DNA of 64,000 bases from the NCBI RefSeq assembly GCF_003334335.1, contig NZ_QOWQ01000010.1; one strand, given 5' to 3'. Position 1 is the first letter of the stretch. Each line of letters begins with the position of its first letter. Below, one piece after another: positions 5,739-40,092 of the stretch. Source of the DNA: Escherichia coli. Lineage in GTDB: Bacteria; Pseudomonadota; Gammaproteobacteria; Enterobacterales; Enterobacteriaceae. The notes under the pieces are model-generated. The model searched no databases and was not told the DNA's origin. It was given only the letters and a program-made list of their open reading frames with translations. Position numbers and translations under genes: made by a program.

Positions 5739-6011
5739 ATGAATATTTATACCTTTGATTTTGATGAGATTGAGAGTCAGGAGGATTTTTATCGTGACTT
5801 TAGCCAAACCTTTGGTCTGGCGAAAGATAAGGTACGCGATCTCGACTCACTATGGGATGTGTTAATGAACGATGTCCTGCCGCTACCACTTGAGATTGAA
5901 TTTGTTCATCTGGGAGAGAAAACGCGTCGCCGTTTTGGCGCGTTAATATTGCTGTTTGATGAGGCAGAGGAAGAGCTGGAAGGGCATTTGCGTTTTAATG
6001 TTCGTCATTAG
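5739..6011 (+). CDS. yhcO: barstar-like (ribonuclease-inhibitor family) protein YhcO
   Basis: 90-aa acidic ORF ([27 protein letters not shown]...); sits between aaeB and yhcN as in E. coli. Confidence 0.8.
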
Positions 6012-24942: not shown

Positions 24943-25490
24943 TTTGCCTCCACCAGGACCGTCAGATTGCCTGTAATATCTGTCATGTCGGTTAGTTCCC
25001 CTTCATCCTTAAAAGCTGGAGCCATTGTCAGTGTGAGGCTAACGCTTTTACCGCTATCAATTACCACTTCTTGACCATTTTGCATAAACACCAGCCAATT
25101 ATTGGGGGAAGTACTAATTGATGCTGTTCCTGTGCTGCCCGGATTGTCATTTTTGCCACTGGCTAACGCCAGGTCGAGATTGTTACTACCTGAAAATGCA
25201 TCGCTGGCGATCAGATTTAATGAACCATTCGGGCCAAATCCAAATCCGTTGTTGGAAATATTAGCGGTATTCAACTGAACACGAATATGAGCGTCCTGAT
25301 CGCATTGCATTACCAGCGTGATTGTTCTGTCTGCTAATTGTGTTGTTTTACCCCGGTCAACTTGGCGCATGGCAGCACTTCGTTTGCCATAGTCGATATT
25401 TTGTATGCTACTGGAGATATTACACTCTGCCTGAGCGGCCATGGCGAAGTTCAGCAGCAGGCATCCTGTTATTATCCGTTTCATTGGCAC
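24939..25490 (-). CDS. yhcE: fimbrial-like protein (YhcE-like), apparently intact
   Basis: 183-aa ORF with signal peptide (MPMKRIITGCLLLNFAMAAQA); overlaps the yhcF start by 4 nt and the usher stop by 10 nt. Confidence 0.55.
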   Translation of the reverse strand: MPMKRIITGCLLLNFAMAAQAECNISSSIQNIDYGKRSAAMRQVDRGKTTQLADRTITLVMQCDQDAHIRVQLNTANISNNGFGFGPNGSLNLIASDAFSGSNNLDLALASGKNDNPGSTGTASISTSPNNWLVFMQNGQEVVIDSGKSVSLTLTMAPAFKDEGELTDMTDITGNLTVLVEAK

Positions 25491-27862
25491 TCTCCTGTTG
25501 CTGTCTCATAGAACACATCTTTTGGTGCATCTTCTGGGAATGTAAGGTGAATACGGCATGATTGCTGCTCATCTTTTATATCTAGCACCATGTCCGGTTT
25601 GATGTTATTGAGGAATACAACACCGTCATCCACTGATGTTGTCAGATAGTTGCCTTCACTATCTTCAATCGCAACGCCTCTGGGCAGTTTTTTGCCGTCG
25701 GAAAGTGTGATACTGAGTAATGCACGGCGTTGTGTTATCGCACTGAATCCGACTTTCCCTACTGCACCACGGCCTTGTTTGATCATTTTTGTGCCGTTAC
25801 CGATATCGACATTTTTTGGCAAGCTGGCGGTATCGATCTCAACTCCTGATGTTCGCCACGGCTGGATTGATGGAATGACGGCATTACCCCGAAAATCTGT
25901 CCATACTGGGCCTGCCTGAGATGTAATTCTGACACCTGCAATATTGTTATCCATTTTTGCGATGGCGAAAGTGTCATTGATAGTCCACGGTGAAAAGGTC
26001 ACTCCCTGATCATGTACGGCAATACCACCTGACATCGTACCGTTGTAAGTACGGCTATCACTGCCGCTTGCTCCTGCGGCAAGGCTGACTTGGGTGTAAT
26101 GGAGATTGGAACTGATACTGCCGTTCAAGCTCGTTTCACGTTCGTCGTGATCTCGTTCAGCATTCACATAGTAGGACATCTCATCTGAGACGACTCCCAT
26201 GACACCAGTACCATAGTGGGTTTTATGATCGTCATGGCGAGTATACAGTGTGGCGGTGTTTGATCTGCCAAATGGAATACTGATGTTGACGTAGAACAGA
26301 TCACCATCGTCTTCATTATTTTCTGAAGCACTAAGTTGATGCTGCCAGTTGACGGAAACCGTGGCGTGTTTGAACGCTTTGTTCCAGTTAATATTAAGGT
26401 TGCTTGAGTCATTGTCACCGTCGTAACTATATGTTTTATAGCCACTGATGTTGAAACCACCCAGAATGGAGTTAGACCAGTTTAAACCAAGCGCATAAGT
26501 GCTTTTAGTCGGATCGGTATAATCATCATCAATCGCTTCAGACAGTTCGCGATAATGGCGATCAGATCGAGTGAGGCTGGTTGTTAGCCCAAGTGAAAAT
26601 GGGAGATTGTAGTTCGCGTCAAGACGATATTTCTGTCCTTGCAGTGAGTCTTTCGTATCCTGCGATGTACTAATTTGGCTGCTCACTGTTAAATCGGGCA
26701 GGGGAACCAGACTCGACCGGATTGATGCCGCCTGATAATTTTCTGCTACGATAACGCCGCCGTTCATTGCACTCCAGCGTGTCAGATTCCATCCGCTCGA
26801 TGCACTAATTACCCAAGGTGATTCGTCATAGTCATCGTCTACCCGCCCTATCGCGAAGCGATAACCCTGGAAGCTTTCTACATGCTGATTAAACAGGGTG
26901 GAGGGAACAATATAGTTGTGCGAACTACCGTCTGTTTCGACAACGGTGACATTAAGATCACTATTACCATTGCGAACAGGTACATCAGGGATAGTGAATG
27001 CGCCCGCAGGAACCAGAATGGAATGAATTAAAACTCCTTGTTGACGAATCTCGACACGAGCCTGAGAGGTGTTGGCTATACCAGTAACTTGCACACCACT
27101 GCCGCTGGTTTGCAATGCGTTGTCCGGTGCGATTTCGATACCGTAAATACTGGCTCCTTCCAACACGCTATTATTGAGGTTAACTTCACCTGCTCGCATG
27201 AGTGTTTTAAGATCTGTAAAGGTACGTTGAAGGTAGGTTGACGAGTTCTGGTTACTGAATGTGCCATTTGTTTGTGTAAGGAACTGATGGCTGCGTAACA
27301 TCCAGTCATTAATATTAATCCCGCCTTCAAGTGCAGCCTGGGAGTAGTCCGAACTCCCATTAGAAAATTCTGCACGGCTGCTCATCAGAGAGTAGTTTAG
27401 CAGCGCAGCTGTTCCACCAGTTGCTGCGTTTGTGAGATCCAACCCTATGGGAATGATCGCCTGTGGTGAAACGATAATATCTAACGCTTCCTGGTTAGGT
27501 AATGGTGTGATTGTGGTACCCGGGTAGGACAATATATAGTCGTAACAGCCATTTTTTTCTTCAGAAGGAATTTTTAAACCGGCTTGTTGCAGAAATGCCT
27601 GATCAAGACAAATGTCGCCATTTTCATCAAAGCGCGTAGCAATGTTGCCTTTTTTTTCGCCATTTACTGATACTATCAGTGAATATTCACCTGGCAAAAA
27701 ACGGGCTGAACGGGAAAAATAATGCGATATATTAGGATCTACACCTAGTGATTTTAATGTTTCCCGATCAAAATCAACAGCGGCAATCTCTATACCATCT
27801 GCATTGGCTGGGGGAGAAAAGGCAAAACCAATGGTGTAGGCCAGTAACGTTTTTTTTAACAT
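25481..27862 (-). CDS. yhcD: outer-membrane fimbrial usher YhcD
   Basis: About 793-aa product from ATG 27862 (MLKKTLLAYTIGFAFSPPANA signal peptide); the track ORF uses a TTG at 27880. Confidence 0.85.
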   Translation of the reverse strand: MLKKTLLAYTIGFAFSPPANADGIEIAAVDFDRETLKSLGVDPNISHYFSRSARFLPGEYSLIVSVNGEKKGNIATRFDENGDICLDQAFLQQAGLKIPSEEKNGCYDYILSYPGTTITPLPNQEALDIIVSPQAIIPIGLDLTNAATGGTAALLNYSLMSSRAEFSNGSSDYSQAALEGGININDWMLRSHQFLTQTNGTFSNQNSSTYLQRTFTDLKTLMRAGEVNLNNSVLEGASIYGIEIAPDNALQTSGSGVQVTGIANTSQARVEIRQQGVLIHSILVPAGAFTIPDVPVRNGNSDLNVTVVETDGSSHNYIVPSTLFNQHVESFQGYRFAIGRVDDDYDESPWVISASSGWNLTRWSAMNGGVIVAENYQAASIRSSLVPLPDLTVSSQISTSQDTKDSLQGQKYRLDANYNLPFSLGLTTSLTRSDRHYRELSEAIDDDYTDPTKSTYALGLNWSNSILGGFNISGYKTYSYDGDNDSSNLNINWNKAFKHATVSVNWQHQLSASENNEDDGDLFYVNISIPFGRSNTATLYTRHDDHKTHYGTGVMGVVSDEMSYYVNAERDHDERETSLNGSISSNLHYTQVSLAAGASGSDSRTYNGTMSGGIAVHDQGVTFSPWTINDTFAIAKMDNNIAGVRITSQAGPVWTDFRGNAVIPSIQPWRTSGVEIDTASLPKNVDIGNGTKMIKQGRGAVGKVGFSAITQRRALLSITLSDGKKLPRGVAIEDSEGNYLTTSVDDGVVFLNNIKPDMVLDIKDEQQSCRIHLTFPEDAPKDVFYETATGECQ

Positions 27863-27882
27863 CCTTGTCGCTCCAGGCAAAG

Positions 27883-28557
27883 TTATTTTAAGTCAGTGAC
27901 ATATTTATTACCGCGATAACCATATCGGCTGGCTGGGTAAAACTCGACTTTTGTATCCGTAGCGTTTGTTAATGCAGTAGTTGTACTGGTGTGTGGTAGA
28001 AAATAGGTCTTATTTATAGCCCCCGTTTTTCCTGAAGGGAGCGTTTTAAATTGTAAGGTCATACGAACGACATAATTACTGGGGTTGCTAATCTCAATTT
28101 GGTCGCCATTTTTACGCCATTCCAGGAATTTCCAGGTCTCTCGCTCTTCCGGCAGGGAAGCCGGGTGGATCAGTACAGGTAGATCCTGACGAATTGAAAC
28201 AGTAACTCTGCTGCTCTTGTCATCTTTTGGTGGAATACCTTCGAACGTTACGCGTTTCAGCTCTTCTGATTGCAGAGGAACAGTCGCCTGAAGTAAAAAT
28301 CGAACCTGTTGTACTTGACCGGCTTCAACACGAATAACGGGCTGAGTCGGGATTAAACGAATTGATTTATTGCTTTCAGGCAAATCAACAATGGTGGTGT
28401 AAAGCAATGAAGGATGATCATCTGTATTCTTAATATTAATACTAGCTTCACCACGCTTTTCATCAACCAGCAATACTGATGTTTCAGGAACCATCCCTGT
28501 GGCTAAGGTATTCATTGATGTTGTTATAAATACAGTGAATGTAATGTGTCTGAGCAT
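27883..28557 (-). CDS. yhcA: periplasmic fimbrial chaperone YhcA (PapD-like)
   Basis: 224-aa ORF with signal peptide, immediately upstream of the usher. Confidence 0.85.
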   Translation of the reverse strand: MLRHITFTVFITTSMNTLATGMVPETSVLLVDEKRGEASINIKNTDDHPSLLYTTIVDLPESNKSIRLIPTQPVIRVEAGQVQQVRFLLQATVPLQSEELKRVTFEGIPPKDDKSSRVTVSIRQDLPVLIHPASLPEERETWKFLEWRKNGDQIEISNPSNYVVRMTLQFKTLPSGKTGAINKTYFLPHTSTTTALTNATDTKVEFYPASRYGYRGNKYVTDLK

Positions 28558-28728
28558 TTAAATTAAAACTCCTGTAATAATGATAAATAACGCAGAAACA
28601 TATTGTTAATATATGTTATGCACTGTTTGCGATGAGATTGATTAAGACAGACCATGTCATAGGGCATAATCTGTCCGAGTTATAGCTAACTGGTTAATGC
28701 GTAAAAATAAAAACTGTATTACAAGTTC

Positions 28729-29493
28729 TTATAAATACTGAACGCTGATAGTGACGTTACCATCCAGTTTGATCGTTTCATCAGAACCAAGAATAGTATT
28801 GTCATTTACCGCAGCATCAATCAGTAACGGGAAGGTGACCGCTGTAATGGCAACAGGTGTCAGTTCCCCTGTTTTTGCAACAGAATAACCGCGCTCGATT
28901 GCTGAGCAACTTGTCAGCGAGCAGAATGCGCCATTAGATGAGGCTTTCCATGTGGGGGTCGCTGCTGACCAGTGGTCAGTTTGAATCAGGTCGACAGGAA
29001 TTTCACCTGTATCGTCCGCCGCGTGAATCCCACCATTAGACCTGTCAATACCAATGGATGCAGCGCCAATTTTTTGTCCATTAGGCGCAGAACCTAAACC
29101 AAAGGCGTTTTTCGTTCCCTTCATATCTACGAGAGTATCATAAGCTTTTTCAATATAGGATGTGTCGTTTAACGCTACAATGGTCGACTGACGGTTATCC
29201 TTGGAGGTTACAGCAATTAGCGTTGGTGCTGTGCAGGTTATATTTAATGTGCTGTTTTTGCGGCCCAGTTGAACCAGTTTATTACTTTTACCGGTCGGAT
29301 TCAGCGCACTGTTATGATGTTTCCCATAGTCAACAATGCCGCCGCCCGTAACAACTGGGGTACATGCACCAGGGGTATACTCGCCGATGATAGTTAATTC
29401 TGTATCAGTTGAATCTGTTGCCATGGCACTGAATGCTGCAACAGAAAGTGCTGCACAAATAGCAGCTGTTGTGAGGTTCTTTTTGAAAAACAT
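28729..29493 (-). CDS. gltF: GltF (periplasmic, fimbrial-subunit-like protein)
   Basis: 254-aa ORF with signal peptide (MFFKKNLTTAAICAALSVAAFSAMA) and C-terminal ...ISVQYL; first gene of the yhcA/D/E/F cluster in this orientation. Confidence 0.8.
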   Translation of the reverse strand: MFFKKNLTTAAICAALSVAAFSAMATDSTDTELTIIGEYTPGACTPVVTGGGIVDYGKHHNSALNPTGKSNKLVQLGRKNSTLNITCTAPTLIAVTSKDNRQSTIVALNDTSYIEKAYDTLVDMKGTKNAFGLGSAPNGQKIGAASIGIDRSNGGIHAADDTGEIPVDLIQTDHWSAATPTWKASSNGAFCSLTSCSAIERGYSVAKTGELTPVAITAVTFPLLIDAAVNDNTILGSDETIKLDGNVTISVQYL

Positions 29494-30012
29494 ATGAACA
29501 TATCCTTAATAACAAATTTATTTTTTAAAATAAAAAGCTGAAGCAGTATATATATCTGTTTGTGAATGTAAATAAATAACTCGTTCAGAAATAGCCAACT
29601 TGCTGGGATGTATTTATTTAATGAATTTTATAGTTACGATCATGTGAATAATAAGGTGCTGGTGAGGTGGTTTGTGGTGATAATTATTCATTACATGAAT
29701 GTTTGCGCTGAAAAATAGGAAAATATATAGATAATTAAGGATAATATATTGGTTTTTTATATTCATATTTTGTATATTAATATCGAGACAATTTACATGA
29801 AATGAAAAGACTGAATAGCTTGCAGAATCGGTATTGTCAGAGGTGTTAACAAGTAATTGAGACGGATTGTAAATGAGAAATTGCTTGATGTGCTTCACTC
29901 ATCAGACTTGGTGAACAAAGCACAATTTATTGAAAATTATCCCTATTATAGGAAAGGTCAAACGCTCATGCCGCATTTGCCAGAAAACAACGCGCACTTC
30001 GTCAGTAATTTG

Positions 30013-30037
30013 ATTCGCCAGACACAGTCTGGCGAAT
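30013..30037. repeat. CAGAC-N3-GTCTG palindrome unit (perfect 11-bp arms) 16 bp downstream of the gltD stop
   Basis: attcgccagac-aca-gtctggcgaat; arms identical to yhcG unit 3. Confidence 0.8.
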
Positions 30038-30052
30038 TCATTGTTACCTCGC

Positions 30053-31483
<1,431 letters not shown>

Positions 31484-39980: not shown

Positions 39981-40092
39981 CCCCGGCTAGACCGGGGTGC
40001 GCGAATACTGCGCCAACACCAGGGAAATCTTGGCTGCGCCGTAAATTATTATGATGAGTTACAAGGGCACAGCACTGTTTTTCAGGCCGCAC
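39972..40092 (-). ncRNA. arcZ: ArcZ (RyhA/SraH) Hfq-dependent small RNA, convergent with and overlapping the arcB 3' end
   Basis: Minus-strand reading GTGCGGCCTGAAAAACAGTGCTGTGCCCTTGTAACTCATCATAATAATTTACGGCGCAGCCAAGATTTCCCTGGTGTTGGCGCAGTATTCGCGCACCCCGGTCTAGCCGGGGTCATTTTTT matches my recollection of ArcZ; it ends in a GC hairpin plus U6 that overlaps the arcB stop codon. Ends are approximate. Confidence 0.75.

Follow-up and report, generated by a model that had tools for sequence, protein, structure and literature searches.

In the 64-kb stretch of Escherichia coli DNA analyzed here (the window), a short perfect palindrome follows the gltD gene. It is an orphan copy of a hairpin that belongs to the nearby gene yhcG, and we think that it is probably the footprint of a palindrome-mediated rearrangement and now persists as a passive stem-loop at the 3′ end of the gltBD mRNA. 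The palindrome, 25 bp long at positions 30013 to 30037, reads ATTCGCCAGAC-ACA-GTCTGGCGAAT, with perfect 11-bp arms, an ACA loop and the outer ends ATT...AAT. A 15-nt spacer, tcattgttacctcgc, lies between the gltD stop codon and the palindrome, whose first base is the 16th nucleotide downstream. A first-pass annotation of this DNA had placed the palindrome here and equated its arms with those of the third of three related units in yhcG. This is correct: within the window the exact 11-nt arm occurs only at 23714/23728, in that unit, and at 30013/30027. In context the stem folds as RNA with about -20 kcal/mol (z = -3.8 to -4.4) and as DNA with -12.1 kcal/mol (z = -6.4).

The AT-rich region of about 560 bp that had been described ahead of gltF is also there, as a 559-bp spacer with a G+C content (GC) of 0.30 over 29500 to 29999, and NC_000913 carries no annotation between gltD and gltF. 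A 27-codon open reading frame (ORF) on the minus strand (29958 to 30041; MNSPDCVWRIKLLTKCALFSGKCGMSV, then a stop) reads through the palindrome. It starts 12 nt past the gltD stop, with a GAGG Shine-Dalgarno sequence 6 nt upstream; its ATG is ATA in strain SF-088, and therefore the ORF is probably not conserved.

Relatives of the palindrome in the window

The following features of the window are used below.

22390 to 22854, plus strand: nanQ (yhcH), an ORF, convergent with gltD in strains that lack the insert described below (island-less strains)
22874 to 22898, no strand assigned: PAL_L, an orphan hairpin unit, ATTCTGCAGAC-ACT-GTCTGCAGAAT, from the sequence and covariance model R1
22914 to 24041, minus strand: yhcG, encoding a DUF1016_N domain (amino acids 19 to 184) and a YhcG_C PD-(D/E)XK nuclease domain (amino acids 208 to 360); PADLOC family PDC-S02
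23629 to 23667, minus strand: yhcG unit 1, 18-nt arms, 94% complementary; encodes K-I-W-Q-T-L-S-A-K-S-F
23671 to 23703, minus strand: yhcG unit 2, 15-nt arms with one mismatch; encodes G-I-P-Q-T-P-S-A-E-F-P
23713 to 23739, minus strand: yhcG unit 3, 12-nt arms; encodes E-I-R-Q-T-M-S-G-E-L
29494 to 30052, no strand assigned: the gltD-gltF spacer, 559 bp, GC about 0.30
30013 to 30037, no strand assigned: PAL_R, the gltD-side palindrome, an orphan hairpin unit, from the sequence, model R1 and a break point of homology between haplotypes
30053 to 31471, minus strand: gltD, an ORF with the palindrome at its 3′ end

When one mismatch is allowed, the 11-nt arm has 9 matches in the window against 1.41 expected, a number reached by none of 100 shuffles. 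The core CAGACNNNGTCTG occurs exactly five times without mismatch (22880, 23642, 23681, 23720 and 30019), and all five copies have the form CAGAC-N3-GTCTG. PAL_R and unit 3 share their arms and differ in the loop, ACA versus ATT. We then searched the 64 kb with R1, a covariance model built only from linker hairpins of yhcG homologs on unrelated viral contigs. It found just the five sites, with E values of 6e-9 to 1e-6 on the better-scoring strand; the next best match had E = 0.17, and the five sites alone fell below E = 0.1. PAL_L scored 36.4 bits (22871 to 22901, E = 6e-9) and PAL_R 29.6 bits (30010 to 30040, E = 1.3e-6). Since the arms are identical and all five copies match one covariance model, we regard the copies as homologous and not independent, as the first-pass annotation had proposed. 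It was also right that they lie within about 7 kb (they span 7.15 kb) and that two of the five sit just 3′ of genes. These two are PAL_R, behind gltD, and PAL_L, between the convergent stop codons of nanQ and yhcG. As DNA, PAL_L folds with -11 kcal/mol. It is present in the inspected yhcG-bearing strains that keep the 3′ end of yhcG (the K-12 window, JSMCR1, O157:H7 and 536) and missing from the BE2-5 allele (one allele read).

The other three copies lie inside the yhcG ORF at a spacing of 39 bp and code for the 13-residue repeats IRQTMSGELTPLG, IPQTPSAEFPSAK and IWQTLSAKSFPLP. Together these repeats form residues 101 to 139 of YhcG, a protein that matches the PADLOC candidate defense family PDC-S02 with E = 3e-131, and they fall in the linker. 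In an AlphaFold2 model the predicted local distance difference test is below 50 at residues 101 to 135 and the domains on both sides are confident; the peptide encoded by the hairpins is thus predicted to be disordered. The units fold individually, and the 123-nt array has z = -12.4 as RNA and -13.1 as DNA. Alleles of yhcG carry one or three units; that of O157:H7 has unit 3 alone.

The hairpin across the yhcG family

The palindrome is not an E. coli-specific repeat; it appears to be a feature of yhcG/DUF1016 genes throughout the family and in many phyla. We scanned one genome per species (100,044 species, 298 Gb) for the exact 18-base pattern TCGCCAGACNNNGTCTGGCGA and obtained 95 loci, where about 4 would be expected by chance on our own estimate. 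They come from Burkholderiales, Pedobacter, Acidobacteriota, Chloroflexota, Planctomycetota, Patescibacteria, Clostridia and others, and nearly all extend to (A)ATTCGCC...GGCGAAT(T) despite unrelated flanks. About 75 of the 95 are within yhcG homologs, and many hold extra units whose arms are different yet complementary. Since loci found by an exact match are a biased sample, we used two samples picked independently of this DNA, 61 homologs altogether: 53 loci on viral contigs, retrieved through a C-terminal peptide pattern, and 8 plasmid homologs that are 28 to 36% identical to E. coli YhcG. A linker unit with arms of 10 to 16 bp and a 3-nt loop was present in 61 of 61.

In 48 of the 53 viral-contig genes, the best palindrome with a 3-nt loop falls at amino acids 97 to 117 and has 9 to 12 of 12 arm positions paired, against a background of about 50,000 centers that peaks at 3 of 12. 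The covariance model, which was built from these sequences, detects a linker unit in each of the 53. Arithmetic on the match coordinates of a subset has most of these units starting at the same codon phase; the units apparently occupy one phase in the linker. The plasmid sample (Methylomonas, Deinococcus, Citrobacter, Klebsiella, Rhodococcus, Curtobacterium, Legionella and Acaryochloris) spans Actinomycetota, Deinococcota, Cyanobacteriota and Pseudomonadota, and the model matched all eight genes at the equivalent place with E values of 1e-9 to 5e-4. Here the arms differ, for example AATTGTCGCGAC-ACT-GTCGCGACAATT in Klebsiella and AATCGTCCAACA-ACC-TGTTGGACGATT in Rhodococcus. The consensus of the family unit is caAAUUgggCAgaCAgUGucUGcccAAUUga, usually with AATT ends and often with the CAGAC-N3-GTCTG core. 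The family itself is very large, with more than 21,000 protein clusters at 50% identity. On the Citrobacter and Klebsiella IncHI1B/IncFIB plasmids (loci L163, 1 to 2199, and L164, 1 to 2205), the yhcG homolog overlaps an upstream gene annotated as a site-specific integrase by 4 nt, and on the Methylomonas and Deinococcus plasmids (L161 and L162) it is embedded within type I restriction-modification loci.

The gltD-side copy has the model score of this module and its arm, loop and end form, but not its in-frame position in a linker. Because it lies between genes, in flanks that have no significant similarity to YhcG, the sequence marks it as an extragenic, orphan copy of the yhcG hairpin and not as a resident unit.

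What is held constant in the family appears to be pairing. We aligned 34 distinct units with 12 pairs and compared them to 500 shuffles. All 12 pairs had changed on both sides (shuffled mean, 8.9; 12 was reached by 2 of 500 shuffles), the double-change cells numbered 113 (shuffled mean, 33.8), and the covariation score was 0.705 (shuffled mean, 0.173), the latter two values being reached by none of the 500. Controls in which the 3′ partner was slid by 1 to 3 columns scored 0.04 to 0.12. The effect can be read in the encoded peptide, I-x-Q-T-x-S-x-x-[LF], where residue 2 and residues 7 and 8 change together as reverse complementarity predicts (R-GE, W-AK, P-AE, G-DQ, Q-VE, C-GK, V-EQ and F-GK). 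Because the arms remain complementary even though their sequences vary, both from gene to gene and among the units of a single gene, these alignments indicate that the constraint acts on nucleic acid pairing and not on the peptide. Mismatches among 73 unique units (14 C.A/A.C versus 8 G.T/T.G) have no usable strand bias, so they do not decide between action as RNA and action as DNA. We discarded a protein-only test of the palindrome compatibility of the peptides: codon degeneracy lets shuffled proteins reach 11 to 12 of 12 as often as real ones, which makes the test worthless.

The hairpin has not, as far as our searches reach, been described. Full-text literature searches for a palindrome with yhcG, DUF1016, PDC-S02 or COG4804, and with gltF or gltD, returned no description of it; the yhcG literature found is limited to fold prediction, the neighborhood of inversion targets and occurrence on mobile elements. 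None of the 4,227 Rfam models matched the unit at its gathering score, and an E-value threshold gave only chance microRNA-like matches with E of 0.09 or more. In the window as a whole, the only Rfam matches are the ArcZ small RNA (39985 to 40092, minus strand) and the greA leader (61737 to 61858, plus strand). Structured RNA or DNA is usually searched for between genes, and for this reason structured elements in ORFs are rarely noticed. Here a conserved, covarying hairpin lies inside the ORFs of a very large uncharacterized family, a candidate phage defense gene.

As to what the hairpin does, our best guess is that its primary function in the family is at the DNA level, where either the nuclease or host replication and recombination would process it as a hairpin or cruciform. 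A sequence search with YhcG among solved structures found no relative. The nearest solved folds of the nuclease domain are those of NucS/EndoMS, Bax1 and Can2/Card1, and the domain has been predicted to resemble archaeal Holliday junction resolvases (PMC1189080). This prediction and these folds make a link between the YhcG nuclease and a hairpin or cruciform plausible. We suggest, tentatively and against our own expectation, that the linker hairpin could be an ancient, selected cis element that serves a junction-resolvase-like nuclease, in hairpin or cruciform form, as its cognate substrate or sensor; on this view, the E. coli orphans beside gltD and nanQ would be footprints left by that activity. 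If so, this would be a nuclease family whose ORF carries its own recognition structure, with a covariation readable in the amino acid sequence, and possible uses would be autoregulation, exchange of N- and C-terminal modules, and self-mobilization. A comparison of N- and C-domain identity in 4,371 pairs found some discordant pairs (N 0.33 versus C 0.69), and nearest-neighbor conflicts were modest. A functional hairpin would provide a direct experimental handle on what YhcG-type nucleases recognize and on their control.

Structural variation between nanQ and gltD

Across 5,426 complete E. coli genomes, the interval between nanQ and gltD is hypervariable, with at least three haplotypes. The island-less haplotype, found in 946 of them, consists of nanQ, 67 bp and gltD, and it contains a single 27-bp palindrome, AATTCGCCAGACACTGTCTGGCGAATT, which matches the only unit in O157:H7 yhcG at 27 of 27 nucleotides, those of the loop among them. 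This arrangement also occurs in another Escherichia species. The K-12-like haplotype, to which the window belongs (about 1,290 genomes), has a palindrome copy at both ends of a 7.1-kb insert:

22899 to 30012, no strand assigned: the strain-variable insert between the two orphan units, with yhcG, the yhcF-E-D-A fimbrial genes, gltF and the AT-rich spacer

GC within the insert is 0.40 to 0.47, against 0.55 to 0.58 in the flanking gltBD and nan genes. The fimbrial segment gltF-yhcA-yhcD-yhcE-yhcF (24226 to 29493) has the same low GC of 0.40 to 0.47, and the gltD-proximal spacer is found in only 1,293 of the 5,426 genomes; for these two reasons, the segment looks horizontally acquired. In the yhcG-only haplotypes (O157:H7, 536 and BL21 types), which make up the rest of the genomes, yhcG is directly downstream of gltD, and no palindrome follows gltD. 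The commonest haplotype has yhcG with PAL_L and without PAL_R. Directly behind gltD, strains that lack the palindrome carry another GC-rich inverted repeat, CAGCGCCG, 17 nt, CGGCGCTG (O157:H7, L004, about 5965 to 6000; also L003).

The homology between haplotypes ends exactly at the palindrome edge (30011/30013 of the window) or at the stop codon (30051). The single island-less copy has the left flank of PAL_L and the right flank of PAL_R. By this comparison the gltD-side palindrome marks a structural junction in E. coli. When three of the five units were compared by BLAST to the 5,426 genomes, the median was 2 to 3 places per genome and the maximum was 6, counts in which one palindrome may appear twice, once per strand. 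Every place inspected was between nanQ and gltD, in line with the clustering noted in the first-pass annotation.

Break points fall on the hairpins in other alleles as well, and the difference between one-unit and three-unit yhcG alleles counts among them. BL21, BE2-5 and others, roughly one sixth of the matched genomes, have about 480 bp in place of the C-terminal half of yhcG, and the replacement breaks at the outer edge of unit 1 (L003, 7945 to 8414, in BE2-5; L005, 6256 to 6727, in BL21). The replacing segment holds a 101-amino-acid ORF annotated as a transposase, for which we found no Pfam or NCBIfam match. Strain 18KM2445 has a 50-bp frameshifting deletion that begins at the center of unit 2 and stops at the end of unit 3 (L158, 3001 to 3060); at the place expected for gltD, beside the yhcG remnant, this strain has genes for a VWA-domain protein and a DUF5682 protein (L158, 3546 to 6049). 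The insertion sequence IS1 lies inside unit 1 in three strains: JSMCR1 (L001, 8228 to 9004), in which the junction, GTCTGCCA|IS1, was read, and PM4 (L156) and S1-INA-02-A (L157), assigned by the same annotated truncation coordinates. Toward gltD, the IS1 deletions end about 2, 126 and 262 bp from the gltD-side palindrome, a nested pattern of IS1 adjacent deletions.

We propose that a palindrome-mediated rearrangement of the adjacent yhcG locus left or placed a copy at the 3′ end of gltD. Deletion or insertion joints would form at hairpins, and dedicated transposition machinery would not be needed. The gltD-side copy would now act only passively, as a stable 3′ stem-loop without a U tract on the gltBD message and, in island-less strains, on the 3′ end of the nan message too; it could protect the mRNA 3′ end or partly impede read-through into gltF. 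The analysis accounts for a puzzling set of palindromes, and it supplies an exact marker of the structural variants in the nanQ-gltD region, by which E. coli is divided into three or more haplotypes.

The unit recurs at the equivalent position, adjoining gltD, in 2,237 of the 5,426 genomes. Several observations weigh against our proposal. In the majority of E. coli genomes no unit follows gltD, so gltBD does not require one. PAL_L and PAL_R have unequal arms (TCTGCAGAC versus TCGCCAGAC), and the single island-less copy can therefore not have come from a simple PAL_L × PAL_R recombination between the K-12 sequences. Escherichia other than E. coli include both the island-less arrangement and the one with yhcG beside gltD, so this comparison does not polarize the three haplotypes. 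For the covariation alignment each gene's best palindrome was taken, a choice that makes the share of paired positions look higher than it is but has no bearing on the coincidence of position or on how varied the pair types are. A role of the gltD-side copy at the RNA 3′ end is something we only infer, from sequence. Finally, a relic of a decayed yhcG gene is not demonstrated, because the flanks of the copy have no significant similarity to YhcG: a YhcG profile search of them gave negative scores, and tblastn of the spacer gave weak colinear matches (AFDLSYN, IVLCS..EAH.A) in the 3 to 8% tail of 300 dinucleotide shuffles, which is not significant. On the minus strand at 29870 to 29990, in the IRQTVSGES frame of the palindrome, AFDLSYN and IVLCSPSLMSEAHQAISHL loosely resemble AFPLSWS and LILCAEKGAAEAHYAL of YhcG and are in the right order, again without significance.

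Other explanations and known systems

The first-pass annotation had read the distribution of copies as local spread of one element. The copies do form one local family; for active spread we found no evidence, the orphans being rare, and the nature of the three yhcG units, in-frame coding repeats of 13 residues built on a family-wide hairpin, had been overlooked. An active form of spread would be a miniature mobile element mobilized by YhcG, with the gltD copy as a transposed unit, much as repetitive extragenic palindromic (REP) sequences are associated with RAYT proteins. We consider this unlikely. The nuclease gene both carries units and is flanked by one, and its predicted resolvase-like domain (PMC1189080) and NucS/EndoMS folds would suit recognition of branched or hairpin DNA. 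Extragenic units are found elsewhere, too. In one locus (L154), a unit begins at the stop codon of the yhcG homolog. In another (L090, 9380 to 9408), a perfect unit, AGATTCGCCAGAC-GGC-GTCTGGCGAATCT, appears to be non-coding and lies 7 kb from the yhcG homolog of the contig, whose resident unit has different arms (GGATATGCCAGAC...). About 10 exact-match loci from other taxa have extended units and no yhcG in the retrieved DNA. However, the element does not proliferate: E. coli has at most 2 orphans, both at the yhcG locus, and only 3 to 4 extragenic R1 matches were found in the 53 homolog loci with 3-kb flanks. The orphan pair in L109 is part of a duplicated gene fragment and not an isolated unit, target duplications are not evident, and the unit is kept in strains without yhcG.

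An att-like site for site-specific recombination, the island-less copy being attB and the flanking copies attL and attR of a yhcG-fimbrial island, is less probable still. It would explain why the island-less copy maps to both ends of the insert, its left flank to PAL_L and its right flank to PAL_R, and the overlap of yhcG with an integrase gene on the Citrobacter and Klebsiella plasmids would be in keeping with it. But no integrase is evident among insert ORFs of at least 100 amino acids (yhcG, the yhc fimbrial genes and gltF), the unequal arms of PAL_L and PAL_R do not fit a simple exchange, the commonest haplotype retains PAL_L alone, and no inverted variants (inversion polymorphism between units) were seen among 5,412 genomes. 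Moreover, tyrosine recombinases are not known to use core sites with a spacer as short as 3 nt.

The near-perfect dyad, with a CAGAC-N3-GTCTG core in all five copies and many homologs, could also be an operator for a dimeric regulator, possibly the N-terminal domain of YhcG. This is very improbable: the outer arms vary among the three units of one gene while each remains internally complementary, which pairing needs and a binding site does not, and other homologs replace even the core with compensated sequences. We give as little weight to the view that the palindrome is the intrinsic terminator of gltBD, shared with nan as a bidirectional one in island-less strains, and evolved independently of yhcG. 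The GC-rich stem 16 nt past the stop codon, which lies between convergent genes in 946 genomes, lacks a U tract on either side (in the gltD direction it is followed by CAAAUUACUG), drew no call from a consensus terminator scan in K-12 or in the empty site, matches a yhcG coding unit at 27 of 27 nucleotides in its island-less form, and is absent after gltD in most genomes. The hairpin thus appears not to be a canonical intrinsic terminator; the idea that it terminates gltBD transcription finds no support in the sequence, and a terminator or insulator role is not established.

Comparison with known systems places the yhcG unit near several of them. REP sequences and bacterial interspersed mosaic elements, with their RAYT (TnpA-REP) protein, are likewise short stable palindromes at the 3′ ends of convergent genes that flank a nuclease or transposase gene, and they can stabilize mRNA 3′ ends. 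However, REPs occur as hundreds of dispersed copies with a conserved 5′ GTAG, whereas the yhcG-type copies are confined to one locus, none of the five units adjoins a GTAG, and the main copies are in frame within coding sequence; RAYT is an HUH/Y1 enzyme and YhcG is a PD-(D/E)XK nuclease. Integron attC sites resemble the unit in conserving structure rather than sequence, with covarying arms, and in bounding exchangeable segments. Unlike the unit, attC has R and L boxes (GTTRRRY), extrahelical bases and variable long loops, needs IntI and is untranslated; we found no R''/R' core sites (RYYYAAC/GTTRRRY) at the palindrome ends and no integrase among the ORFs identified in the 7-kb segment.

Rickettsia palindromic elements are also palindromic DNA translated in a tolerated surface or linker region. 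They are 100 to 150 bp long and scattered in many unrelated genes of one genus, while the yhcG unit is 25 to 35 bp long and, within a single gene family that spans many phyla, apparently keeps to a fixed position and codon phase. With intrinsic and bidirectional terminators the gltD-side copy shares a GC-rich stem-loop soon after a stop codon and between convergent genes, but it has no U or A tracts and no call in the consensus scan, and it is homologous to the coding sequence of a neighboring gene. The omega RNA (reRNA) of TnpB, which overlaps the 3′ end of tnpB, is another case of a nuclease gene with a conserved nucleic acid structure in its own coding region; in contrast, the yhcG hairpin is simple and lies in the linker, there is no evidence of a processed RNA or guide function, and the mismatches of its units show no sense-strand preference for G-U.

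In E. coli, replication template switching at quasipalindrome hotspots corrects imperfect palindromes to perfect ones. Such a process could keep the arms of the yhcG unit complementary without selection and generate rearrangement joints. It is a mutational process and not a defined element, and alone it does not explain the fixed position of the hairpin across more than 21,000 clusters. If self-correction by template switching maintains the hairpin, yhcG would offer a natural example, and an unusually clear one, of how a palindrome can dictate the sequence of a protein over deep time.

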